A DNA stretch of 64,000 bases from Candidatus Neptunichlamydia sp. (GTDB taxonomy: Bacteria > Chlamydiota > Chlamydiia > Chlamydiales > Simkaniaceae): positions 704,001 to 768,000 of the forward strand of contig OZ247587.1 of NCBI GenBank assembly GCA_965233865.1. The letters are read 5' to 3'. Below are positions 45,261 to 57,852 of the stretch, one piece after another (position 1 is the stretch's first letter; each line of letters opens with the position of its first letter). The translations under genes were made by a program, and so were the position numbers. The notes beneath the pieces were generated by a model. That model ran no database searches. It was not told the DNA's origin and was given only the letters and a program-made list of their open reading frames with translations.

Positions 45261-46340
45261 ATGGCTGAAAAAACTGAGAAAGCGACCCCAAAAAAACTCC
45301 GTGATGCAAGGAAAAAGGGGCAAGTAGCTAAATCTAAAGATTTCCCTTCTGCATTTACTTTCGCAACGTCCTTTGCTTTAATCGTTGCTACATCAGGCTA
45401 TTTTTTCTCAAATCTTGCTGGGTTCATGATAGCTTCTTTTTCAGCAGTGAAGAATGGAGAACGTATTGAAGCCGAAATTCCTATATTCTTTAACGCTGCC
45501 ATTCAGGTGATTTTTAACACATCGATGCCATTTATGATTTTGATTTCACTGGTTGGAGTCTTGGTGAATTTCTTGATTGTTGGTCCCCTCTTTTCATTGC
45601 AATCTATGAAGCCCGATATCAAAAAACTCAACCCTGTAACAAATTTGAAGGGAATTTTCAAAATAAAAACCTTCATTGAGCTTTTGAAATCTATAATGAA
45701 GATTTTTGGAGCGGGCCTTTTGATTTATTCTGTGGTTTATAACAGCCTCCCCCAGATTATTGCCACTGCGGCAATGCCAATTATGGGAAGTGCCATTGTT
45801 TTTAGCGAATTTTTGGTCAAAGTCGCTTTTCGTGTTGGACTTTTCTTTTTAGCAATTGCGATTTTTGACTTAGTATTCCAAAAGAAAAATTTCGCTAAAG
45901 AAATGAAAATGGAAAAATTTGAGGTTAAACAAGAACACAAAGATACGGAAGGAAATCCTGAAATTAAGGGTAAGAGACGGCAAACACAACAAGAAATTGC
46001 CTATCAAGACCCTCCAAGTAAGGCCCGTAATGCGCGAGCCATTGTAACAAACCCTATTCATATTGCTGTAGCACTCGCTTATGATGCTGAAGAAGACCCA
46101 GCCCCAAAGATTCTTGTGATGGGAAAAGGGGTAGCGGCAGAAAGCATCGTGAAAGTGGCTCTTGAAAACAACGTCCCAATTATGCGAAATGTTCCTCTAG
46201 CTCAAATGCTATACAACAAAGGAAAAGCGGGTCGATTCATCCCGGAAGATACCTATGAAGCAATTGCAGAAGTCTTGAAGTGGCTTGATACCATTGAAGC
46301 CTCTGCCGAACCAGAATACAACGTTGACCTCTTTAAATAA
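45261..46340 (+). CDS. cdsU: T3SS export apparatus switch protein SctU/CdsU
   Basis: EKTEKATPKKLRDARKKGQV, EVKQE.K..EGNP.IK..RR, autocleavage site NPIH, IP...YEA.AE. Confidence 0.95.
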   Translation: MAEKTEKATPKKLRDARKKGQVAKSKDFPSAFTFATSFALIVATSGYFFSNLAGFMIASFSAVKNGERIEAEIPIFFNAAIQVIFNTSMPFMILISLVGVLVNFLIVGPLFSLQSMKPDIKKLNPVTNLKGIFKIKTFIELLKSIMKIFGAGLLIYSVVYNSLPQIIATAAMPIMGSAIVFSEFLVKVAFRVGLFFLAIAIFDLVFQKKNFAKEMKMEKFEVKQEHKDTEGNPEIKGKRRQTQQEIAYQDPPSKARNARAIVTNPIHIAVALAYDAEEDPAPKILVMGKGVAAESIVKVALENNVPIMRNVPLAQMLYNKGKAGRFIPEDTYEAIAEVLKWLDTIEASAEPEYNVDLFK

Positions 46341-46451
46341 ACTTTCTACTCTTGAAAGTTCTGGTAGCTTTACGGAGGACAAATGGAAAGTGTTTAGCTA
46401 AAGCACTTCACTTTATCTATAGATAATCCTTCCAGATTTTCCGATAGCCCA

Positions 46452-46480
46452 TTGACATTCTTTAAATATTATTATACAGG
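46452..46480 (+). promoter_or_regulatory. Putative promoter of the first autotransporter
   Basis: Perfect TTGACA at 46452-46457, 60 nt upstream of the ATG; the -10 element is weak or ambiguous. Confidence 0.35.
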
Positions 46481-46511
46481 TTGAAATATCTAAAAAATGT
46501 AAGGGTTCGTC

Positions 46512-49500
46512 ATGTCTCGTTGTCGTTTTATTGCTTCACTATCTACATTTCTTTGCGTTGCACCTTTCCTAGAAGGCGTCGTCGTAAACAATGCCACAGA
46601 CCTTAACAATGCGATTATTGCAGCAAACGCAGCAGGCGATTCCAGCATCCAATTCGGAACATCTATCAATCTCACGACTCTTCCTGTGAACGTGCTTCAA
46701 CCTCTCAATGCAAATAACGTCCTCAACTCAGCCAACAACACCTTCACGATTGATGGCCGAGGACACTCCCTATTAGGGGGCGGAAGCCACCGTGGCTTTT
46801 TTGCCCGCCAAAGCACAGGCACCGTTACGATCCAAAACCTTACGATTGATGGAGCCCATACCCAAGGAGGTAATGGAGGTAACCCCTCTGCTGGAGGTGG
46901 CCTAGGCGCCGGTGGGGGGCTATTCTTAAATACCGGATCAAAAGTCACTCTTGACAATGTCTCTTTCCAAAACTCCCAAGCCACTGGAGGTAACGGTGCA
47001 AGTAGTGCGGATGTTCTGATTAACTCTGGCGGTGGTGGCCTTACTATTATTATTATTAGTCCAAGACTTCCAGGTGGTGGTGGTGGCGGCGGTGGTTTCA
47101 GCGGTAATGGGGGAAATACAGACGAAGGCAAATATGGAGGGGCCGGTGGAGGCAGCTTCAGCGGTAATGGAGGAAATACAGACGGATATGGAGGGGCCGG
47201 TGGGGGAGGCTTCAACGGTAATGGAGGAAACGTTCTATCTAATAATGGCCCAGGCGCTAGTGGTTCAGGCAGCGGCGGCGGCGGCGGCGGCTTCAACGGT
47301 GGTGGTTCTAGCTCACTAGGAGGTGGTGGCGGTGCTGGGGACGGTGGTTTCGGGGGAAATTCTGGTGCTAGCGGCGGCCCTGGTGGTGTTGGCAGTGGGA
47401 GTGGTACAGGAGGCTTAGCAGGAGCGGGCGTAGGAAGCGGTGGTGGTAGTGGCGCAGTAGGGAACACTAGTGGGATCTCTGGAGAAGCAGGCCTAGGTGG
47501 TGCTGGTGGCTCTTTGCCTGGTGGGGGCGGTGGGGGCGGATATGCTTACACCCCTGATAGTGGGGGCAGTGGGGGCAGTGGCGGTATAGGTTTTGGTGGT
47601 GGCGGCGGCGGCGGCGGTGAAGGAAACTCTGGGGTTGGGGGAAATGCTGACTTTGGTGGTGGTGGTGGTGGTGGTGGTGGCAGCGGCCAACTGCCGCAAG
47701 GTGTTCTTGCTACCGGTGGCTCCGGCGGTTTTGGAGGTGGTGGTGGCGGCGGCGGCGGCAGCGACCAACTGCCGCAAGGTATTCCTGCTACTGGTGGCTC
47801 TGGCGGTTTTGGTGGCGGTGGCGGTGGCGGTGGCGGCAGTGGCCAATTACAACAAGGTATTTATGCTTCCGGTGGCTTGGGCGGTTTTGGTGGTGGTGGC
47901 GGTAACAGCGCAAACGGCGGTTTTGGCGGCGGCCATGGCAGTAGCATAAGCCTCTTTTCTGGAGGAGGAGGAGGCGGCGGTGCTATGGGAGCAGATGTCT
48001 TCATTCAAAGGGGCGCAGCGTTGACGATTAGAAGCGGGATCTCCTTTACTGGAAGCAGCGTAAATCCTGGAACATCATTCTTCGGAGGTCTTCCTGGTCA
48101 AGCACTTGGCACAAACATTTTCATGATGTCAGACAGTTCCATCATTGTTGAAAATCTCTCGATGAATTCGACTGTTCCAAATGCGATCGAAAGTGACCTT
48201 GGAGCAGGTGGTGGAGCCCTACATACTGGAGGGCTGACTCTCAACGCAGGTAACACGGCTGTCTTCACTCTAGTTGGAGCGAACACCTACACAGGAGCAA
48301 CAACCATAAATAGTGGAACTCTACATGTTGACGGGTCTATTATTACGCCTGTGACGCTCAATAATGGGGTCTTTGGAGGGAATAACACCTCTCTTCTTAC
48401 ATCAGCAGTTCCAAACTCTGGTAACTTAACCGTTAACGGTGGAATGGTGTCTCCTGGAGGGGATAATGCTTATGGGAGCCTTACTTTAGGTGGTAATCTT
48501 CTCTTTAATGGAGGGGGAATATTCGACGCTGAGGTGGATAGTGTGGGAAACACCGATTCGATTAGTGTAGCTGGAACAGCAACGCTTGACGGAACCCTCG
48601 ATATCCAAGCAGCAGTCGGAAACTTCATTACAGGACAGGTCATTAAGATTTTTGATGCAATAGGTGGAGTGAGTGGAACCTTTTCGAATGTGATCCTCCC
48701 TATACATCCACATGGGGGTGACCTTTTTGAAGTGCAGTATAGTGCAAATTCGGTCGATCTCGTCGTTCTACAAGATTTAATTTTTGACGCTCCATACACA
48801 GGTCAGACGATTAACTCAGGTAACCCTCAAGCTGTCGTTGACTATTTGATTACTCAACTTCCAGTTGATCCCACATCAGACGTGGGATTTGTGATCAAAT
48901 CTTTGGGCCTGGTTTCCAACGATGAGCTCAATAAAGCCCTCAACCTTATGCATCCAGGTTCTTTTGGCCTTTTTGAATCAATGAATCTGACAACAAATGC
49001 TAAGATCATGCAGATCTTCAGTCAGCATCTTGAGAGAAATCCTGAGTCGGCTCCGTCAGAAACCATTAGTCAGCTTGAACCCTCGTTCACAGCAGCAACC
49101 GGTGATCGTCCTTTTTGTCCAAGCGCCCCTGCAGGTATAGATTGCGGAAGGAATGAAAGTAAGCATCATAATGTATGGCTACAACCTTTCAGCACGTGGA
49201 ATACCCAAAGTCGTAAAGGGGAACTCCGTGGTGCAAACTATGAAAGCGTCGGGATCATGACGGGATATGATTACCTCTTCAAGAACTTCTGCGTGGGAGC
49301 AGGTCTAGGGTATGCCTACACCAACTTCCGCTGGCAAGGCTCAGCTGGGAAAGGACACATTAACCAAATCTACGGTGGTCTTTATGGAAGCTATTTTATG
49401 AAGTATTTTACAGCGACTCTTTCGACTATGGTAGGAGGTAACTACTATAATACCAATCGCAATATCCGGTATAATGCCTCAAACCATCCAACCGCTCGAT

Positions 49501-50033
49501 TGAATCGAACAGCGCATAGTCACAACTCAGGGATCCAGTGGACAAATCATCTTGGATTGACTGGAGAAGTCGGAACATTCCACATCGGAGATGTTAGTTC
49601 TGGCTCTATTCCAGTGCAAATTTTTGGGAACCTTGACCATTTTTACCTCCACAATGGAAATTTTAGTGAGAGTGGCGCCAACAGCATTAACCTGCGAGTG
49701 CGTTCTAAAACATCGAATGCACTCCGTTCGGAACTGGGACTTAGCTCAAGCTATGCCTTCCAATTTTCTGGTGGATGTTGGACACCTTATGTTCGCATCA
49801 GCTGCGTCAACAAAACGCTTCTGAGCAGCAGCTCGTATCGCGGAGGCTTCCGTGGACAAACCGGGACATTCTCAGTGAGCGCAAGTAGCAAAGGAACCAT
49901 CCAGTGGTCACCGGGCGTAGGCGTTAAATTCTCAAACATGCATGGGTTTTTACTTCTCCTGAATACCAGCGCGGAACTTAACGGCAAAATAAAAAACTAT
50001 TCTGCTGACATGCGGCTAGATTATACGTTTTAA
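46512..50033 (+). CDS. Type Va autotransporter with glycine-rich (PGRS-like) passenger
   Basis: Signal peptide, ~300-aa Gly-rich block, PATR-like GANTYTGATTINSGTL repeat, and a C-terminal beta-barrel ending RLDYTF. Confidence 0.9.
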   Translation: MSRCRFIASLSTFLCVAPFLEGVVVNNATDLNNAIIAANAAGDSSIQFGTSINLTTLPVNVLQPLNANNVLNSANNTFTIDGRGHSLLGGGSHRGFFARQSTGTVTIQNLTIDGAHTQGGNGGNPSAGGGLGAGGGLFLNTGSKVTLDNVSFQNSQATGGNGASSADVLINSGGGGLTIIIISPRLPGGGGGGGGFSGNGGNTDEGKYGGAGGGSFSGNGGNTDGYGGAGGGGFNGNGGNVLSNNGPGASGSGSGGGGGGFNGGGSSSLGGGGGAGDGGFGGNSGASGGPGGVGSGSGTGGLAGAGVGSGGGSGAVGNTSGISGEAGLGGAGGSLPGGGGGGGYAYTPDSGGSGGSGGIGFGGGGGGGGEGNSGVGGNADFGGGGGGGGGSGQLPQGVLATGGSGGFGGGGGGGGGSDQLPQGIPATGGSGGFGGGGGGGGGSGQLQQGIYASGGLGGFGGGGGNSANGGFGGGHGSSISLFSGGGGGGGAMGADVFIQRGAALTIRSGISFTGSSVNPGTSFFGGLPGQALGTNIFMMSDSSIIVENLSMNSTVPNAIESDLGAGGGALHTGGLTLNAGNTAVFTLVGANTYTGATTINSGTLHVDGSIITPVTLNNGVFGGNNTSLLTSAVPNSGNLTVNGGMVSPGGDNAYGSLTLGGNLLFNGGGIFDAEVDSVGNTDSISVAGTATLDGTLDIQAAVGNFITGQVIKIFDAIGGVSGTFSNVILPIHPHGGDLFEVQYSANSVDLVVLQDLIFDAPYTGQTINSGNPQAVVDYLITQLPVDPTSDVGFVIKSLGLVSNDELNKALNLMHPGSFGLFESMNLTTNAKIMQIFSQHLERNPESAPSETISQLEPSFTAATGDRPFCPSAPAGIDCGRNESKHHNVWLQPFSTWNTQSRKGELRGANYESVGIMTGYDYLFKNFCVGAGLGYAYTNFRWQGSAGKGHINQIYGGLYGSYFMKYFTATLSTMVGGNYYNTNRNIRYNASNHPTARLNRTAHSHNSGIQWTNHLGLTGEVGTFHIGDVSSGSIPVQIFGNLDHFYLHNGNFSESGANSINLRVRSKTSNALRSELGLSSSYAFQFSGGCWTPYVRISCVNKTLLSSSSYRGGFRGQTGTFSVSASSKGTIQWSPGVGVKFSNMHGFLLLLNTSAELNGKIKNYSADMRLDYTF
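47652..47885 (+). repeat. Three tandem 78-nt coding repeats
   Basis: Unit encodes F-G9-S(G/D)QL(P/Q)QG..A(T/S)GG(S/L)GG, three copies. Confidence 0.92.
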
Positions 50034-50188
50034 CATACTATAGCTTAGTACAGGATTAAAAAAATTAAGGATGGAGCAATTCATCGATATGTAGTAATTT
50101 ATTTTTTATTAAAAAAAAGATTTAAATCAATAACATTGATAATCTATTTTTTATATTTGAACATAAAACTTAATAATAGGTAAAAATT

Positions 50189-52138
50189 ATGTGCCATTTT
50201 CATTTTAAAAAAATAATAGTCTTTTTAGTGGCAATATTCACGACGCAGTTTTTGCTAGCAGTTCCCCCAGCTCCACTACAAAATTATTGCCCTGTTGTTT
50301 TAGTGAATAATTCCACCTTGAATGCAAACCAAATTTACTTTGTCGCACATGGAAACGATCCTAATGGGTTTCCTTGTTTTTTGGTTCCCGATGCAAATGG
50401 TGTTTGTCAGTTTTCCTACCCTACAGCAGACGGCACTCCAAGCTCAGCATTGGTGAGTAAAACTCTTGACCAGCTTCCAATTGCTACTGACATCCCACCT
50501 TTGATCAATGAAGCTTACTTAGTTTATTTACCTGTTAACAGTTCTTCTAGAGCTTACCTTTCAATCGACCTCCCTATATACTTGGGAACTTCTATTAATC
50601 CTGCTCTTGGGGTAATGGGTATTATGGATGCTTCAGTAACCTCACGAACCGACCCAAACTTCTACACTTTATATCAAGATTTTGAGTTTGATTTAGATGA
50701 TTCGGTTTCAAATTCGGAAAAGAAGCTATATTTAAACCTTTCTTGGGTCGATTACTTCTGCCTTCCAATGCAATTGCATACCTACAGTTATCCTTCAAAT
50801 AAACAAATTAGCATGGATGGAACTTATGAATCTGGAACAGACTCAAAATTGACACGTGAAGATATCATTACCCAAATGAATTCTGGCTTAACTGCTGGCC
50901 AAGCTTACCCCTCTTGGGGGTATCTAGACGTTCCATTCTACGATAACCCTTACACAGACTCTACTCCTGCTAGTTGTGTGCGTATTCTTGCTGCAAAAAA
51001 CAGCATTGATTTAGAAAAAAGCCCACAGTTTCAAGGAGGGCAAACCCCCCCGAATTTTTTCCCCTTGACCTACAGTACAGACGCAAACAATGGTCCCCAA
51101 ACAGGTAAAAGCTTTTATGAAGCTGTGTATAACTACTACTTATCCAATATCTTTTATGCCAAAGTGATCCCAGCAGGTCACTTAAAAGAGGAAGTCTATA
51201 CAATCACATCCGTTTCAGGTTCTCCTCTCGTTTTGAGTTTTGTAGCTGCAAATGTAAAGAACCACACATTAGATGTCACACTTGATTTGAATGACCTTGC
51301 TTTCGACCAAATGCTCAGTGGATCTGTCTGGCCATTTCAGCCAACGACCGTTTTAGCCGCCTATACAAATGAACTCTCTAAACTTATCAGCGCACTCTTT
51401 ACCATCGGTCAGTTGCCTTATACTGCGTCTACAACTTCGCCTGAGAATCCCTTTGTCAATAACAATGATGGGTATAAAGCGATAACCTACTTCAAAAATC
51501 CTCCAAATTATAGTAATGGTCCTTGGTATAACCTTTTCGACATTGAGCTGCATAAATTAGAAATTAGCAAAGAGAAAGTCCCAAAAAATGCAACCCTTGG
51601 GCTTGGCTACGGTTATGATTTTGACGATTTACTAAATATGAGCGGAATTATTAACGGAATTGACATTCAAGATACCCTTGGAAACCCGTCTCCAACAACG
51701 GATGCTTCAGAACCCTACCTTATCATCACATTAGAGAGTTTATCAGGCACCACCATTCCGAACCTCGCCGCAAACAATCAAGCCTACAATGTGACCATGG
51801 GACCTGCTGCAAGCGGTGTTGATGTGTCATTTACCTACTACGATGGTTCGATCACACAGACAACGAATGCCTCACTAACAGTAAATACAGATTTAGGATC
51901 AGTGCAAGTCGATGAAAACAACCCTTTTGTCATTAAGTTCACTTTTGATAGCGCGGACTACGAGTACCATATTAACATTCAAAATCAAGTCGTGCTCCCC
52001 TCAACTGTGACAAGTACATATTCTGCAGCAGATCAACATTTTCTCAATAGTATTGTCTTTGAAAAAACCTTGGGAACACAATCAAACCCAGAATTTACAA
52101 TTACTTATAATAGCTCACCACCTCCTTGGGCTGGATAA
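50189..52138 (+). CDS. Secreted GH64-family beta-1,3-glucanase-like protein
   Basis: Signal peptide; S.R.Y.S, DPN..TLY..FEF, L.LN.S.VD.F.LP (candidate catalytic Glu/Asp), and GYGYDFDD, similar to the GH64 GYAFPYDD. Confidence 0.75.
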   Translation: MCHFHFKKIIVFLVAIFTTQFLLAVPPAPLQNYCPVVLVNNSTLNANQIYFVAHGNDPNGFPCFLVPDANGVCQFSYPTADGTPSSALVSKTLDQLPIATDIPPLINEAYLVYLPVNSSSRAYLSIDLPIYLGTSINPALGVMGIMDASVTSRTDPNFYTLYQDFEFDLDDSVSNSEKKLYLNLSWVDYFCLPMQLHTYSYPSNKQISMDGTYESGTDSKLTREDIITQMNSGLTAGQAYPSWGYLDVPFYDNPYTDSTPASCVRILAAKNSIDLEKSPQFQGGQTPPNFFPLTYSTDANNGPQTGKSFYEAVYNYYLSNIFYAKVIPAGHLKEEVYTITSVSGSPLVLSFVAANVKNHTLDVTLDLNDLAFDQMLSGSVWPFQPTTVLAAYTNELSKLISALFTIGQLPYTASTTSPENPFVNNNDGYKAITYFKNPPNYSNGPWYNLFDIELHKLEISKEKVPKNATLGLGYGYDFDDLLNMSGIINGIDIQDTLGNPSPTTDASEPYLIITLESLSGTTIPNLAANNQAYNVTMGPAASGVDVSFTYYDGSITQTTNASLTVNTDLGSVQVDENNPFVIKFTFDSADYEYHINIQNQVVLPSTVTSTYSAADQHFLNSIVFEKTLGTQSNPEFTITYNSSPPPWAG

Positions 52139-52165
52139 GATTAACACTTAAAAATATGAGACCAA

Positions 52166-55100
52166 ATGAGATTAAGAAATGCTTTACTCTTAGTGATCAT
52201 CTCCCTTAATTTATTTGCTGTAACCAAAACTTGGCAGGGAACCAGCAGTTCCATGAGTACAGGGAGTAACTGGAGCCCTGCGGTAGCACCGATGCCAGGT
52301 GATGATTTAGTTTTTCCTAAGTCCCCTACTGTAAGCTCAATTACGAACGACATTGTTGGAACCCTCAACGTTGGATCCATGAGCTTTCACGATACTTATA
52401 CCCTCTCAGGCAACTCGTTTGCTACAGCTGCATCAGGAGGGGTTAGTATCTCTTTAGGCACCCTGACTTTCAATCAACCCAACCAATTTTCTGGAGTCAT
52501 CTCAGTTGGTACCGTTGCCACTCCAGCTACTTTGACAGCTGGTGCTGCGGGGGCTATTGGAAACGCAAGTTTTCAGCCATTTGTTACTTTGCTTGGCACG
52601 AGTACATTAAACTTGAATGGCAATGATAATACTTTATTATTCCTCTCAGGAAACCTTGGAAGCTCAGTGACTCTAGGTTCTGGAACCCTCACTGTAATAG
52701 GATCTTCTACAGATCTCCCTTTCTATGGAAACGTGTCAGGGGCAGGCAATATAGCGGTTCCCTCAGGAACTCTTCCTCTAATGGGAACCAACACATATTC
52801 AGGAACAACAACGATCCAAGGAGGCGGGTCTTTAAATACTTTGAACAGCACTGGATCGACGAGTATGATCTCTTTCCCATCAGGGGCAGGATCACTTGTA
52901 TTTGGCGGTTCTGGTAGTTTCAACACACCGATTGACATTGCCGGTACGGCTCAGATTAGCGTCAACGACCACAATGTCACACTTTCTGGAGAACTGTCTG
53001 GCCCTGGCACCTTGCAAAAACTAGGGCGTGGAACTTTGACTCTAACCGGGACAAACACAAACTTAACAGGGCCCCTAATTATTAAAGGAGGAATTTTAAA
53101 TGTTACCACTGCGAGTTTAGGGAATTTTACGTCTATTTTATTTGATACGTTTGGAGGAGCCATTCAAATCGCAGAAAATATGGCCATTCCCCAACCTATT
53201 ACCCTCTCTAACTTTGGTGGATTTGATACAAATGGATTTAATCTCACAATCAGTGGCCCGATCTCAGGATCCCACCCATTCACTAAGTCAGGTGCAGGCA
53301 CACTTACCTTAACAAACAGCGTAAGTAACTACACGGGAAAAACCGTGATTCAGGAAGGGACCTTGAATGTGACACCCACAACCTTTCCAACTAGCTCTAC
53401 TCAGCTTGTTTTTGATAGCCCTGGAACTGGCATTCTTCAAATTGCAGATAACTTCCCAAGCTTTACTTCTTCAATCGTCTTGTTTGACAACGGAACAATC
53501 GATACCAACTCCCAAAATATGACAATTTCTGGAGTCATTGCCGGGCTCACAGGAAACACTTTTAATAAAAATGGAATGGGAACCCTGATTTTAATGGGGG
53601 AGAATGTGTATCAAGCAGCTACAAGCGTCAACGCAGGAACACTTCAAGCAGGCATCGCCTCTATGACAACTTATGGACCCTTTGGACTCAGCTCGCCTGT
53701 CACCGTTGCTTCTGGAGCAACACTTGACTTTCAAAATTTCGAAACAACAGTTGGAAGTTTAGATAACTTGGGGACAGTTTTTAGTAGCAACACAGTAGAT
53801 GCCTCCAGTTTCACTCAAGCGAATTCTGGCACGCTCGAGTTAAATTTTCCCACAAACCAAGCAGTCCCCGTTGGAAATATCTCTGTTACAGGTGCCATTA
53901 ACTTGGATGGCATGCTAGATGTGACAAACACAGGGGGCTTTACTTTCACGCAAGGGAACGAAATCATATTACTGCAATCATCAGGTTCAGGAAAACAACT
54001 CACTGGCACCTTCTCATCGGCTACTCTTCCCTTTGGTAAATTAAAATATGACTACGCTCAAAACCAAGTTATTTTGGGACTTGGTGGTTGCGATGGAATT
54101 TGGGGATCGGCATCTAATGGTGACTGGGGCTTAGTTGGAAACTGGTCTTCTAGTTGTGTCCCTGGAATCGGTGGTAACTCCCAAGACTCTGCAACATTTA
54201 ATGATGTTGCAGCAGGAGCTGTGACAGTGACTCTTGCTGATAGTGGAACAAGTACCGCTTTGCCCGTAATCCTTCATGATATCACTTTTAACGCCTCTAG
54301 CACCGTTTTTACAATCGATCAGTTTGACAACACCAGTGTGATCACTTTAGATGCTCCTTCAGGAAGCTCAAGCCCAACCATTCATATCACAGATGGAACT
54401 CCAACAATTAATACACCTATTCTCCTTAATACTGCCTCTGTATTCTCTCTCAGCACCGGGACACTCACTCTAGGTTCTAATACAACCATTACATCGGCTA
54501 ACAATGACGGCCTACAAATTATCGAGGGACAAAATAACGGGACATTAACGAATAACGGATCAATCACTCCTGCTAGTTTGGCAGTCAATGGAAGTACACT
54601 CAATAACAACGCAACAATCCAAACCACGGGTTCTATCATAATCGAAGATCTTGCAGGACTTACGAATCCCATTATGGTCACTAATGCTTCAACATTTACT
54701 GCTGGCACAACCTTTAGCATTGGAGGAGATTCGACCGTCACAAATAGTGCAACAATGGCTTCTGAGGGGAACTTCACAATCAACAATGGCATGGTTACCA
54801 ACCAGTCTGGAGGTCAGTTAAACGCTGGATCAAGCAGCACTTTCTCTGTTACAGGAGGCACGTTGACAAATGCTCAAGGCGGAATATTAGGAACAGCAGA
54901 TTCAAATCTATCTGTGAGTGGTGGAGCCCTTAACTCTGCCGACCAAATCTTGGCAAATAACTACACCCAAACTAGTGGCGGAACACTAGGATTAAATTTC
55001 CCAACAACTTCAGCTTCACCCGTTGGAAAAATTTCAGCTGCTGCTGCAATTAGTTTAAGCGGTACCCTAAACGTAACAAATACCGGCGGCTTTTCTCCTA

Positions 55101-57466
55101 CTCCTGGAACTGAAATTGTTTTATTAGAATCTTCAGGCTCTGGAAAACAACTTTCCGGATCCTTCACCACGACCACCCTTCCCTTTGGTAAGTTGAAATA
55201 TGACTACAGCCAAAACCAGGTCATTTTAGGCGTTGGGGGTTGCGATGGAACTTGGGCAGCTACTACTAATGGAAACTGGGGAACTGTTGGGAACTGGTCG
55301 TCTGGGTGTGTCCCTGGAATCAACGGAAATGCCCAAGATTCCAGCACATTTAACGACGTCGCTGCGGGAGCTATCACAGTCACCCTTGCAAATGATTCAG
55401 GAAATGCCGCATTGCCAGTTATTCTCCATGAAATTGCTTTCAACTCTGCAAACACCACTTACACAATCGAGCAATTTGACAACACTAGCATCATCCATTT
55501 AGATGAACCAAATGCGAGCTCATCTCCCTCCATTATCCTCACAGCTGGAACTGCAACAATTGATACCCCGATTATACTCAACACCGACTCAGTGCTTTCA
55601 GTCAGCTCTGGAACACTCATATTCGGTCCCAATACCACAATCGCAGGTTCGAATGATTTACAAATCAGTGAAGGACACACAAGTGGAACAATCACAAACA
55701 ATGGAGCGATCACACCAGCGAGTTTCACAATCGAAGGAAACACCTTCAACAACATGGGGTCGGTCCAAACCACCGGTTCAATTGTCATCGAAGACCTTCC
55801 AGGAGTAGACAACCCAATTGTAATCAACAATTTCTCAACATTTATTGCTGGCACCAACTTGAGCATTAGCGGAAATGCCATGATCTCGAACCAATCGGGT
55901 GCACAGATGAACGCAGGTTCAGGTAGCCTTCTCTCAGTTGCTGGTGGAACAGTGACAAATAGCCAAGGGGCAACATTTGGCACTTCTGATGCCGATCTCA
56001 CTATCTCAGGGGGAATAGTGAATAACTCTGGGATTACAAAAGCAAAAACCTACACACAAAGTAGCCCAGCCACCCTTCAGCTAAATCTCTTGAACAGTTC
56101 CAGTTTTGGACAAGTTCTTGTGAGCGATCAAGCAAGCCTCGGTGGAAACCTCATCATCAACGCTTCCTCTGACCCCTCGATCGTATCAGGCCAAAGCTTT
56201 GATCTGATCACGACTCAAAATGGGGTTTCCAACACTTTCTCTAATATTTCATTTCAAGGATTCCCTGGTTCTACCATCCCTGATTTAATCTATCTGCCAA
56301 ACACCGTGCAATTGAAGACCAGCCCATCTGTTCCGGGCCATTTTAGCGGAAACCAATCTCACATTTCTTTTGGATTGGTCAGACAGCACAGTTCATACGT
56401 GAGAAGAAAGTGCTTCCAATTTAGAGATCGATTGCCAAATGGCTCTGCTCCAGCAAATCAAAATACCATCTCGCAAATTAACCTCACACATCCTGAAGTT
56501 AAAGGAATAATGGTCTCTCTTAAAGAACCTACAAGCATGAACACTGCTCAGGAGAAAGATACTACCCCGATCTTGGAACCACTCCCCACCAGAGCAAACC
56601 ACACAAGAGATGGAAAGGTCTACATTGGTCCTGTTGCCTCTTTTGGAGAAATCGATTCAAAAAAAGACCAAATCGGCTCCACTTATACCTCTGCTGGAGG
56701 ACTCATTGGTGCGGATTATCTTTTCCGAGAGATTGAAAAATTTCCCTGCGACATTGGAGTGGGTGGAACCGTTCAATATCGTAGGCTTTGTGGAAACGGA
56801 AAAAATAATTCAGGAGACTATCAAAGCCATATTCTCCATGGAAGTCTCTACAGTTCATTTATTCCTCAAGCACTCCAAGCGCTTTCTATCGAAACCGTTG
56901 TTGGATACACGCACATTTGGGACTACTTAAACCGCACAGCTGGTTTTGACAAAAATAGCAAAGCAAGAAGCAACACAGATCAAAATCTCTTTGATACTCT
57001 TCTCGGTTTAGAGTACACACTCACCTTGCCAAAACAATTTTCATTTACTCCCTATCTGTATCTACAATACATCTACAATCACGTTGATGGTTTCAAAGAA
57101 AGTGGCGCTAAGATTTATAACCTAAAAGTGAAGTCTCAATCCATTAACTCACTGAACACCCAATTAGGAGCTCGGACCTGTTACAACCTGATCAGAAAAA
57201 GCTACACGTTAACATTTGAACTGGATGTAGAGTGGATCAGAGAGTATTTAAACAATGACCGTTCAGTTGGATTTATTCCTTTTTTGATTACCAACCAGCC
57301 AACAAATATCACAGCATTTGCCCCTTCTAGAAATAGCATCTTGCTGGCCACTGACTTACTGTTAAAATTTCCAAATGGATGGCAAGCAGAAGCGGGCTGC
57401 ACGTTCCAGTATAATAGCTTATTTTACGACAACTTTTTCTACTTAGGTGTCGGAAAGCGATTCTAA
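52166..57466 (+). CDS. Large type Va autotransporter with PATR repeats and internal module duplication
   Basis: Signal peptide; K.G.GTLTL...N.Y.G.T.I..GTL repeats; Thr/Ser/Gly/Asn-rich beta-helix passenger; beta-barrel ending LGVGKRF. Confidence 0.92.
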   Translation: MRLRNALLLVIISLNLFAVTKTWQGTSSSMSTGSNWSPAVAPMPGDDLVFPKSPTVSSITNDIVGTLNVGSMSFHDTYTLSGNSFATAASGGVSISLGTLTFNQPNQFSGVISVGTVATPATLTAGAAGAIGNASFQPFVTLLGTSTLNLNGNDNTLLFLSGNLGSSVTLGSGTLTVIGSSTDLPFYGNVSGAGNIAVPSGTLPLMGTNTYSGTTTIQGGGSLNTLNSTGSTSMISFPSGAGSLVFGGSGSFNTPIDIAGTAQISVNDHNVTLSGELSGPGTLQKLGRGTLTLTGTNTNLTGPLIIKGGILNVTTASLGNFTSILFDTFGGAIQIAENMAIPQPITLSNFGGFDTNGFNLTISGPISGSHPFTKSGAGTLTLTNSVSNYTGKTVIQEGTLNVTPTTFPTSSTQLVFDSPGTGILQIADNFPSFTSSIVLFDNGTIDTNSQNMTISGVIAGLTGNTFNKNGMGTLILMGENVYQAATSVNAGTLQAGIASMTTYGPFGLSSPVTVASGATLDFQNFETTVGSLDNLGTVFSSNTVDASSFTQANSGTLELNFPTNQAVPVGNISVTGAINLDGMLDVTNTGGFTFTQGNEIILLQSSGSGKQLTGTFSSATLPFGKLKYDYAQNQVILGLGGCDGIWGSASNGDWGLVGNWSSSCVPGIGGNSQDSATFNDVAAGAVTVTLADSGTSTALPVILHDITFNASSTVFTIDQFDNTSVITLDAPSGSSSPTIHITDGTPTINTPILLNTASVFSLSTGTLTLGSNTTITSANNDGLQIIEGQNNGTLTNNGSITPASLAVNGSTLNNNATIQTTGSIIIEDLAGLTNPIMVTNASTFTAGTTFSIGGDSTVTNSATMASEGNFTINNGMVTNQSGGQLNAGSSSTFSVTGGTLTNAQGGILGTADSNLSVSGGALNSADQILANNYTQTSGGTLGLNFPTTSASPVGKISAAAAISLSGTLNVTNTGGFSPTPGTEIVLLESSGSGKQLSGSFTTTTLPFGKLKYDYSQNQVILGVGGCDGTWAATTNGNWGTVGNWSSGCVPGINGNAQDSSTFNDVAAGAITVTLANDSGNAALPVILHEIAFNSANTTYTIEQFDNTSIIHLDEPNASSSPSIILTAGTATIDTPIILNTDSVLSVSSGTLIFGPNTTIAGSNDLQISEGHTSGTITNNGAITPASFTIEGNTFNNMGSVQTTGSIVIEDLPGVDNPIVINNFSTFIAGTNLSISGNAMISNQSGAQMNAGSGSLLSVAGGTVTNSQGATFGTSDADLTISGGIVNNSGITKAKTYTQSSPATLQLNLLNSSSFGQVLVSDQASLGGNLIINASSDPSIVSGQSFDLITTQNGVSNTFSNISFQGFPGSTIPDLIYLPNTVQLKTSPSVPGHFSGNQSHISFGLVRQHSSYVRRKCFQFRDRLPNGSAPANQNTISQINLTHPEVKGIMVSLKEPTSMNTAQEKDTTPILEPLPTRANHTRDGKVYIGPVASFGEIDSKKDQIGSTYTSAGGLIGADYLFREIEKFPCDIGVGGTVQYRRLCGNGKNNSGDYQSHILHGSLYSSFIPQALQALSIETVVGYTHIWDYLNRTAGFDKNSKARSNTDQNLFDTLLGLEYTLTLPKQFSFTPYLYLQYIYNHVDGFKESGAKIYNLKVKSQSINSLNTQLGARTCYNLIRKSYTLTFELDVEWIREYLNNDRSVGFIPFLITNQPTNITAFAPSRNSILLATDLLLKFPNGWQAEAGCTFQYNSLFYDNFFYLGVGKRF
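53810..56050 (+). repeat. Tandem duplication of a ~370-aa passenger module
   Basis: Units start at 53810 and 54962 (period 1152 nt) and share SSGSGKQL.G.F...TLPFGKLKYDY.QNQVILG.GGCDG.W and CVPGI.GN.QDS.TFNDVAAGA.TVTLA. Confidence 0.92.
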
Positions 57467-57852
57467 ACCCGGGAGTAGTGTTCTCTCCGAGGTCTTTTTT
57501 CAAGAAGATCCTTTTCTACTTGCCTCAACATGAACTCTGAATAAATAGGCTAAACTTTCGAGTTAAAGGGGATTGATAAACTTGGTTCGGAAAAGTTTTT
57601 ACGAGTGAAAAGTTTTCATTTTGATCCTTTTTTGTTATCATAAAAAGATCAGTTCACCTCTAATAAACTATTTTTTTTGAAAATGCAGGCTCTGCCAAAA
57701 CTATACAATAAAAGAAAAATGGGACATGATATGTTAGAAGAGAGCTGTAAATGATTGCAACTGCTATAAATTAGCTTAATATAAAGTGACTACTGAGTCA
57801 AAGTACGACCGCATGATCTCTTTAAAATAAGACGAATTCTTCGGAGTAATAA

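Follow-up and report, generated by a model that had tools for sequence, protein, structure and literature searches.

Among the chlamydiae compared here, the genes cdsU and cdsV, which belong to a type III secretion system (T3SS), are neighbours, and the question is why they are 11,512 nt apart in a stretch of 64,000 nt from Candidatus Neptunichlamydia sp. (contig OZ247587.1, positions 704,001 to 768,000 of the forward strand; hereafter the window, with positions counted from its first letter). The intervening block contains genes for a Gly-rich autotransporter, here called AT1, a GH64-like protein, here called P0002, and an autotransporter with PATR repeats, here called AT2. The explanation that we favour, and consider probable, is that the block is a lineage-specific insertion, downstream of the cdsU stop codon, of three genes for surface or exported proteins that are resident in this chlamydial family, that its position within the T3SS cluster is incidental, and that it is made up of two units, AT1 and a GH64/PATR cassette.

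The genome that holds the window is a single chlamydial contig of 1.83 Mb. The order of genes, as given by the open reading frame (ORF) list and Pfam, is infB-rbfA-truB-ribF-ychF-cdsU, followed by AT1, GH64-like and AT2, and then by cdsV-copN-CesT chaperone-malQ. The features of the locus are the following.

45261 to 46340, forward strand: cdsU (FlhB/YscU family), intact, 359 amino acids, PF01312 with an E-value of 3.2e-108; left neighbour of the insert
46354 to 57696, forward strand: the insert, 11,343 nt, with no copy in any relative examined
46512 to 50033, forward strand: AT1, Gly-rich autotransporter, 1173 amino acids, PF03797 with an E-value of 2.9e-31
50189 to 52138, forward strand: gene for the GH64-like protein P0002, 649 amino acids, PF16483 with an E-value of 3.2e-16
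52166 to 57466, forward strand: AT2, PATR autotransporter, 1766 amino acids, PF03797 with an E-value of 3.7e-36 and PATR with an E-value of 5.7e-14
57697 to 57852, forward strand: native and intact cdsV leader, 156 nt, conserved among close relatives
57853 to 59976, forward strand: cdsV (FHIPEP family), intact, 707 amino acids, PF00771 with an E-value of 7.7e-219; right neighbour of the insert

An initial annotation of the window had described three co-oriented genes for exported proteins between cdsU and cdsV, with a spacer of 27 nt between the GH64-like gene and AT2, and both the coordinates and the spacer agree with our data. The cdsU and cdsV genes themselves are 93% to 94% identical to those of the closest relatives, in the case of cdsU over the full length.

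In all of the 49 informative relatives, cdsU and cdsV were neighbours and the block was lacking, which identifies it as a real, lineage-specific insertion into the spacer between the two genes, as had been proposed. The sample consisted of 40 relatives and 9 additional genomes of the same family (G065, G083, G089, G156, G171, G206, G304, G311, and G382); the relatives of this family carry the source labels Simkania or Neptunichlamydia, and the genome of the window itself is referred to as G000. The phylum-wide search for cdsU listed 150 of 389 places, and the extension beyond the first 40 genomes was kept within the family. Genome G154, in which the two genes are located at the ends of 2 contigs, and genomes G373 and G393, which gave no match to cdsV, were left out as uninformative, and G404 and G405, where cdsU was not searched, were likewise left out of the count. 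The matched ends of the two genes were separated by 3 to 352 nt in 47 of the 49 genomes. In G006, the gap was 757 nt and contained an IS200-like insertion sequence (IS) element with a Y1 transposase (PF01797, E-value 2e-40; L003:4681-5223), lying precisely at the stop codon of cdsU and sharing 96% identity with a copy at positions 211054 to 211596 of G000, outside the window. In G011, the gap was 1310 nt, with a 1.1 kb insert of decayed DNA in which no clear ORF stands out. The stop codon of cdsU lies no more than a few bases from the start of each of the 3 inserts. Thus, the 11.3-kb block is unique to the genome of the window among the genomes examined, and in this subclade DNA has landed repeatedly at the spot that follows this stop codon. 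The presence of an IS element and of decayed DNA at the same spot in G006 and G011 suggests that the site is permissive rather than functional.

It was also noted that G000 has a second IS200-like transposase gene in 8 full-length copies, one of which is located at positions 770475 to 770867, 2.5 kb past the end of the window. Furthermore, an extra ORF of 215 amino acids was found between cdsV and copN in G005 (L004:6773-7420), with no Pfam family and no match among the ORFs of at least 80 amino acids in the genome of the window, which indicates that the T3SS cluster takes up insertions at other junctions too.

The borders of the insert were defined by blastn comparisons with G003, G005, G006, and G011, in which homology stops at position 46353, 13 nt past the cdsU stop codon, and restarts at position 57697, 156 nt upstream of cdsV. 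From the latter position into cdsV, the alignments to the same 4 genomes cover about 205 nt with 78% to 86% nucleotide identity. Each of the junctions was spanned by Logan contigs from the sequencing runs X1 and X2. The contigs cover the cdsU-AT1 junction (46128 to 47446), the AT1-GH64 junction (47692 to 51215), the GH64-AT2 junction (51238 to 53152) and the AT2-cdsV junction (56944 to 58820 and 56617 to 59500), with zero differences and with an even depth across cdsU, the block and cdsV. The 2 runs belong to one study, possibly that of the source sample, and are not fully independent. The initial annotation had raised the prospect that the junctions are an assembly chimera; a search for evidence in its favour gave no support, the loose ends in the reads, such as the one at position 50102 in X1 and X2, represent a second, different sequence context in the samples, and with every junction bridged by contigs of the 2 runs we consider the junctions to be real and a chimera to be exceedingly improbable.

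At position 50102, located in the spacer between AT1 and the GH64-like gene, an X1/X2 contig fits the window onward and has at least 255 unlike bases upstream, the first 30 of which are missing from the assembled genome. A second sequence context for the GH64-like gene thus seems to exist in these samples. Low-depth contigs with at least 95% identity to parts of ychF, AT1, the GH64-like gene, and AT2 were also identified in run X4 from another study, with a depth of 9 in the bin that contains the 3' end of cdsU and the left junction. These contigs break into unlike sequence at positions 46501, 52430, and 53533, and may come from a close relative with a different arrangement elsewhere.

The gene for P0002 and the gene for AT2 are a genuine linked pair. 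A profile built from 76 relatives detected the GH64-like family in 85 of the 401 genomes sampled from the phylum, and in none of the 30 genomes of a family with genomes of 1.0 to 1.4 Mb. Besides the window, 34 GH64 loci were fetched, and a tree was inferred from 36 proteins, excluding the broken GH64 genes at L021 and L037 as well as the incomplete ones in G013 and G065. The window belonged to a clade of 15 rows, here called clade A, with 100% support in the Shimodaira-Hasegawa-like approximate likelihood ratio test (SH-aLRT). In 12 of these rows, including the window, the GH64-like gene is followed directly downstream by a co-oriented gene for a PATR autotransporter whose length ranges from about 1180 to over 2690 amino acids, while 2 rows stop at the end of a contig and one (L025) lacks the autotransporter; L022 was counted with the pair, since the first 167 amino acids of its autotransporter are visible before the contig ends. 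The co-occurrence of GH64 and PATR autotransporters, which the initial annotation had singled out for examination, is hence seen as an adjacent, co-oriented pair in 11 of the 12 other informative clade A loci, from at least 4 families, which are mixed in the clade (f1, f5, f8, and f43). PATR repeats were identified in all 9 of the downstream genes that were scanned, and PF03797 was reached in 5 of them; the other 4 align to AT2 through its last residue. The AT1 gene was absent from every other locus examined that carried the pair.

A different partner was found in the sister clade, here called clade B, which comprised 9 rows. In 7 of the 8 informative loci, the downstream gene codes for a protein of 263 to 317 amino acids that starts with a signal peptide and has Phe as its last residue; these proteins form one family with 34% to 93% identity and matched no Pfam family above threshold. 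The predicted structure is all-beta (predicted local distance difference test, pLDDT, 79.7) and matches OpcA, with a template modelling (TM) score of 0.77, as well as Pla and OmpT. The same small barrel family also follows the broken GH64 gene at L037 and a clade C gene at L047, and its loci are the following.

L027 to L031, L033, L037, L038, and L047 (for example L031:5846-6637): genes of the small barrel family

A relationship of this family to the barrel region of AT2 was considered and rejected, as the profile comparison gave a probability of 2.7%. The C-terminal tails of the GH64-like proteins are conserved and distinct for each clade, with the motifs PPPW[P/A]G and NTNPFP. The GH64 gene at L037 (G279) is interrupted by stop codons. 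At L021 (G219), which is outside the tree, the pair is present with stop codons in the GH64 gene and a downstream autotransporter gene that is also broken, and here the 2 genes appear to decay together.

To what extent P0002 resembles known glucanases was examined with family, structure, and profile comparisons. The match to PF16483 scored 60 bits against a cut-off of 27. The AlphaFold2 model of P0002 had a pLDDT of 93.9, and its top 6 Foldseek matches were all GH64 proteins (E-values of 2.3e-17 to 4.9e-14, TM-scores of 0.58 to 0.78 normalised to the target), led by 3gd0 with an E-value of 2.3e-17 and a TM-score of 0.78. The match includes both the barrel and the alpha/beta domain of the GH64 fold, such that the model of P0002 displays a complete two-domain GH64 fold. 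The nearest clusters to P0002 in the ESM Atlas were likewise GH64, and the profile of the 76 relatives matched 6 GH64 proteins in the PDB (8 listed sequences, including 2 variants), the best being 5h4e with an E-value of 2.7e-8. In the profile alignments to 5h4e, 9vp9, 9vsf, 5h9x, and 7vtl, the Glu in the EF(T) motif corresponds to residue E166 and the Asp in the VD motif to D188, with an insertion of 5 or 6 residues between them in P0002 relative to the spacing of 16 residues in GH64. In GH64 enzymes, this Glu is described as the proton donor and the Asp as the base (PMC8394091). Both residues, and a YDD-type motif near residues 474 to 480, are invariant in the alignment of the 76 sequences. 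A C-terminal region rich in beta-strands begins at about residue 488 of the model and ends in the clade-specific tail PPPW[A/P]G. Taken as a model-based prediction, P0002 is somewhat more probably an active β-1,3-glucanase than not.

Both autotransporters contain a C-terminal PF03797 domain, as in type Va autotransporters, an assignment based on the domain match, at residues 888 to 1142 in AT1 (E-value 2.9e-31) and at residues 1487 to 1744 in AT2. The N-termini of AT1, P0002, and AT2 all resemble signal peptides, as judged by eye. According to Pfam and NCBIfam, the PATR repeats are present in AT2, which also matches TIGR02601 in NCBIfam, and not in AT1, for which NCBIfam has no model. AT2 contains an internal duplication (53840 to 54730 against 54992 to 55876, 69% nucleotide identity in a self-match) and shares 66% identity with the protein encoded downstream of GH64 in L001. 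A complex prediction for residues 25 to 649 of P0002 and the C-terminal 366 amino acids of AT2 gave a score of 0.00, which is evidence neither way. AT1 contains a Gly-rich region of about 400 amino acids with tandem repeats. Its relatives, with 59% to 65% identity over the C-terminal 674 amino acids, are located at other loci in G001, G005, G006, G009, G010, and G015, and the G006 copy matches the copy in the block alone in G000, where AT1 is single-copy. AT1 is a fast-evolving, Gly-rich autotransporter with its sole copy at this locus and with relatives elsewhere in the congeners. It was also observed that the repeats at positions 47583 to 47902, which have a period of 78 nt, encode Gly runs, and that reads seem to be cut at these repeats, the number of which may vary or resist assembly.

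The gene families of the block are native to this chlamydial family, given that AT1 has relatives in 6 congeners and that the same GH64/AT2 pair is present in a named Simkania sp. record. In that record, the nearest homologs of the GH64-like protein (75% identity) and of AT2 (66% identity) are encoded by adjacent genes, 28 nt apart, in between thymidine kinase and RseP/dxr, and the neighbouring housekeeping genes are 60% to 72% identical to their counterparts in the genome of the window. It was noted that G005 and G006 contain an AT1-type autotransporter, GH3, and a UCH-type deubiquitinase-like gene beside RseP, together with Fic in G006 (L012, L014). On the RseP side in G000 (886622 to 892065), all 4 of these genes are lacking, and a neighbouring block of three genes has the opposite orientation to that in G005 and G006. 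No remnants of AT1, GH3, UCH, or Fic were found at this site in G000, and relocation from there therefore stays an idea rather than a result.

No tRNA, integrase ORF, or transposase ORF was identified within the insert by the ORF list, Pfam, and the tRNA search, and the Rfam scan of the insert gave no family, the sole match being at the level of chance (E-value 0.097). The ends of the insert had no second occurrence elsewhere in the genome in blastn searches and no similarity to the IS200-like elements. There is, however, a weak, gapped direct repeat at the borders.

46323 to 46357, forward strand: left copy of the repeat, comprising the 3' end of cdsU, the stop codon and the first bases of the spacer
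57652 to 57682, forward strand: right copy of the repeat, at the right border of the insert

The local alignment score of the 2 copies is 30, a score that was reached by 12 of 2000 shuffles, and a gapless repeat finder did not report the pair. The statement in the initial annotation that no integrase or transposase is visible is accordingly upheld, and its companion statement that there is no flanking direct repeat needs to be qualified.

The position of the block between two T3SS genes had suggested a functional tie to the injectisome, which the comparative data do not bear out. In addition to the adjacency of cdsU and cdsV in the 49 relatives, none of the 34 other GH64 loci contained cdsU, cdsV, copN, the scc1 chaperone gene, or ychF, and the link to the T3SS is therefore lineage-specific and probably accidental. 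Consensus scans for transcription signals were uninformative, with 21 promoter-like sites against 20.6 expected, and 8 terminator-like sites against 13 expected, none of which was located in the 3 intergenic spacers. A published table lists a verified promoter upstream of CT091/yscU (PMC2743672).

Several observations weigh against the explanation that we favour, and we consider these together with the alternatives to which they lend support. The match to PF16483 covers only profile positions 3 to 159 of 370, such that Pfam recognises no more than the N-terminal barrel domain, and NCBIfam has no model for the GH64-like protein. It is also the case that thaumatin-like proteins, which occupy Foldseek ranks 7 to 20, have the same fold, and that the 3 paralogous clades with their partner-specific tails suggest roles in protein-protein interactions. 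P0002 could in that case be non-catalytic, either a glucan-binding or structural partner of the thaumatin-like type or an accessory factor of the autotransporter. The invariance of E166, D188 and the YDD-type motif, and the match to the full two-domain fold of 3gd0, speak for an enzyme, and we regard a non-catalytic role as unlikely. The counts of linked pairs overstate the number of independent observations, since kin are not independent. Furthermore, read-through transcription from cdsU via the block to cdsV is possible. The initial annotation had proposed an adhesin and glucanase module, recruited into the injectisome locus and possibly co-regulated with the T3SS, that would attach to and breach a host layer of β-1,3-glucan prior to injection. 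The 3 genes are indeed co-oriented with cdsU and cdsV without terminator-like sites in the consensus scan of the spacers, the GH64 catalytic pair is conserved, and selection keeps the two genes of the cassette together. However, a recruited module is difficult to reconcile with the lack of T3SS genes at the other GH64 loci, the adjacency of cdsU and cdsV in the relatives, the seemingly permissive nature of a site where G006 carries an IS element and G011 decayed DNA, and the conserved 156-nt cdsV leader, which was left intact. We find this proposal very doubtful.

The remaining points concern the origin of the DNA. The G+C content of AT1 (50.7%) and AT2 (44.0%) exceeds that of the genome (41.0%), although the value for AT1 falls to 46.1% without the Gly-rich part and its excess is largely explained by glycine codons. 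In the tree, the GH64-like protein of the window grouped with another genus (100% support) rather than with its congener G011, with which it shares only 38% identity. With this grouping outside its own genus, the cassette may have been transferred from one chlamydia to another instead of being relocated within the genome. The weak flanking repeat could be an attachment-site (att)-like trace of site-specific integration. It may thus be argued that the block is a horizontally acquired island, placed at the 3' end of cdsU by site-specific recombination, whose integrase was lost afterwards, as the imperfect repeat of the cdsU 3' end at the right border, the affinity of the GH64-like protein to another genus, and the mixing of the 4 families in clade A, which fits exchange among chlamydiae, would all be in line with such a history. 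Yet there is no integrase or transposase domain, tRNA, or mobility gene, no part of the ends recurs elsewhere in the genome, the G+C content of 40% to 51% compares with 41% in the genome, and the repeat is gapped and weak enough for shuffled sequences to reach its score. The AT1 family is moreover present in the genus, and the nearest cassette is about as similar (75% and 66% identity) as the housekeeping genes of the same record (60% to 72%), which fits vertical descent. An integrase-mediated island is, in our judgement, an improbable source of the block.

We return to the lineage-specific insertion of family-resident genes, according to which the block would have landed in the short spacer past the cdsU stop codon, where close relatives took up other DNA. 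The GH64-like protein would be exported via its putative signal peptide and is probably an active, inverting β-1,3-glucanase. Its site of action may be the cell surface, in partnership with the outer-membrane protein that the adjacent gene encodes and that would anchor or display the enzyme, and the passenger of the autotransporter would be an adhesin. We infer the enzyme activity, the substrate, the surface location, the physical contact, and the route of insertion from the comparisons above. A more speculative proposal, which we put forward as a possibility of rather low probability, is a so far undescribed two-gene surface system of environmental chlamydiae, in which the GH64 protein is exported to or held on the surface by the downstream barrel protein, be it a PATR autotransporter or an OpcA/omptin-like protein, with the clade-specific tail as a docking or sorting signal. 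If true, it would imply infectious particles with a wall- or glucan-degrading tip, and hint at hosts or prey with β-1,3-glucan, such as algae, oomycetes, fungi, and cysts.

Should the enzyme be active and exposed at the surface, it would represent new surface equipment of chlamydial particles and provide a clue to the hosts, or host structures, of uncultured lineages. For the biology of the T3SS, the result is a negative one: the cdsU-cdsV junction tolerates large inserts, with at least 3 different ones at one point in one subclade, and nothing about the block leads one to expect a new accessory of the injectisome. The part worth following up is the conserved cassette of GH64 and outer-membrane protein genes. 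No description of the GH64/outer-membrane protein pairing or of the cdsU-cdsV insertion was found in the open-access full-text literature, supplementary files aside.

How the locus relates to known systems can be summarised as follows. Like the IS200/IS605-type insertion in G006, the insert in the window starts immediately past the stop codon of cdsU, at the same point, and is followed by a second copy of a short motif from the context of the stop codon, but it lacks a transposase, shows no similarity to the ends of the IS element, and is about 20 times longer. P0002 shares the two-domain fold of the laminaripentaose-producing endo-β-1,3-glucanases of GH64 (LPHase 3gd0 from Streptomyces matensis, 5h4e from Clostridium beijerinckii, and 5h9x from Paenibacillus), with Glu and Asp at the positions of the donor and the base and, close to the C-terminal end of the catalytic module, a YDD-type motif. 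It differs from them by an identity of only 15% to 17% in the structural alignments, by long insertions (about 500 alignment columns over targets of 362 to 375 residues), by the extra C-terminal beta-rich region with its conserved tail, and by being encoded in an obligate intracellular lineage, next to a gene for an outer-membrane protein. AT1 and AT2 have in common with the type Va PATR autotransporter adhesins, for which the chlamydial Pmp adhesins provide a functional comparison, an N-terminus that resembles a signal peptide, a long, apparently repeat-rich passenger, and the C-terminal PF03797 barrel; no Pmp-specific Pfam family was reported for either at E-values up to 0.01. AT1 is unusual for its Gly-rich region of about 400 amino acids and AT2 for its consistent pairing with a GH64 gene. 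Adhesin autotransporter operons with a dedicated carbohydrate-active enzyme are known from Escherichia coli, namely aah-aidA and tibC-tibA, in which the autotransporter gene is directly preceded by the gene for the enzyme in the same orientation, just as for P0002 and AT2. However, the enzymes of the aah and tibC type are cytoplasmic glycosyltransferases that modify the passenger, whereas P0002 has a putative signal peptide and the fold of a glycoside hydrolase.

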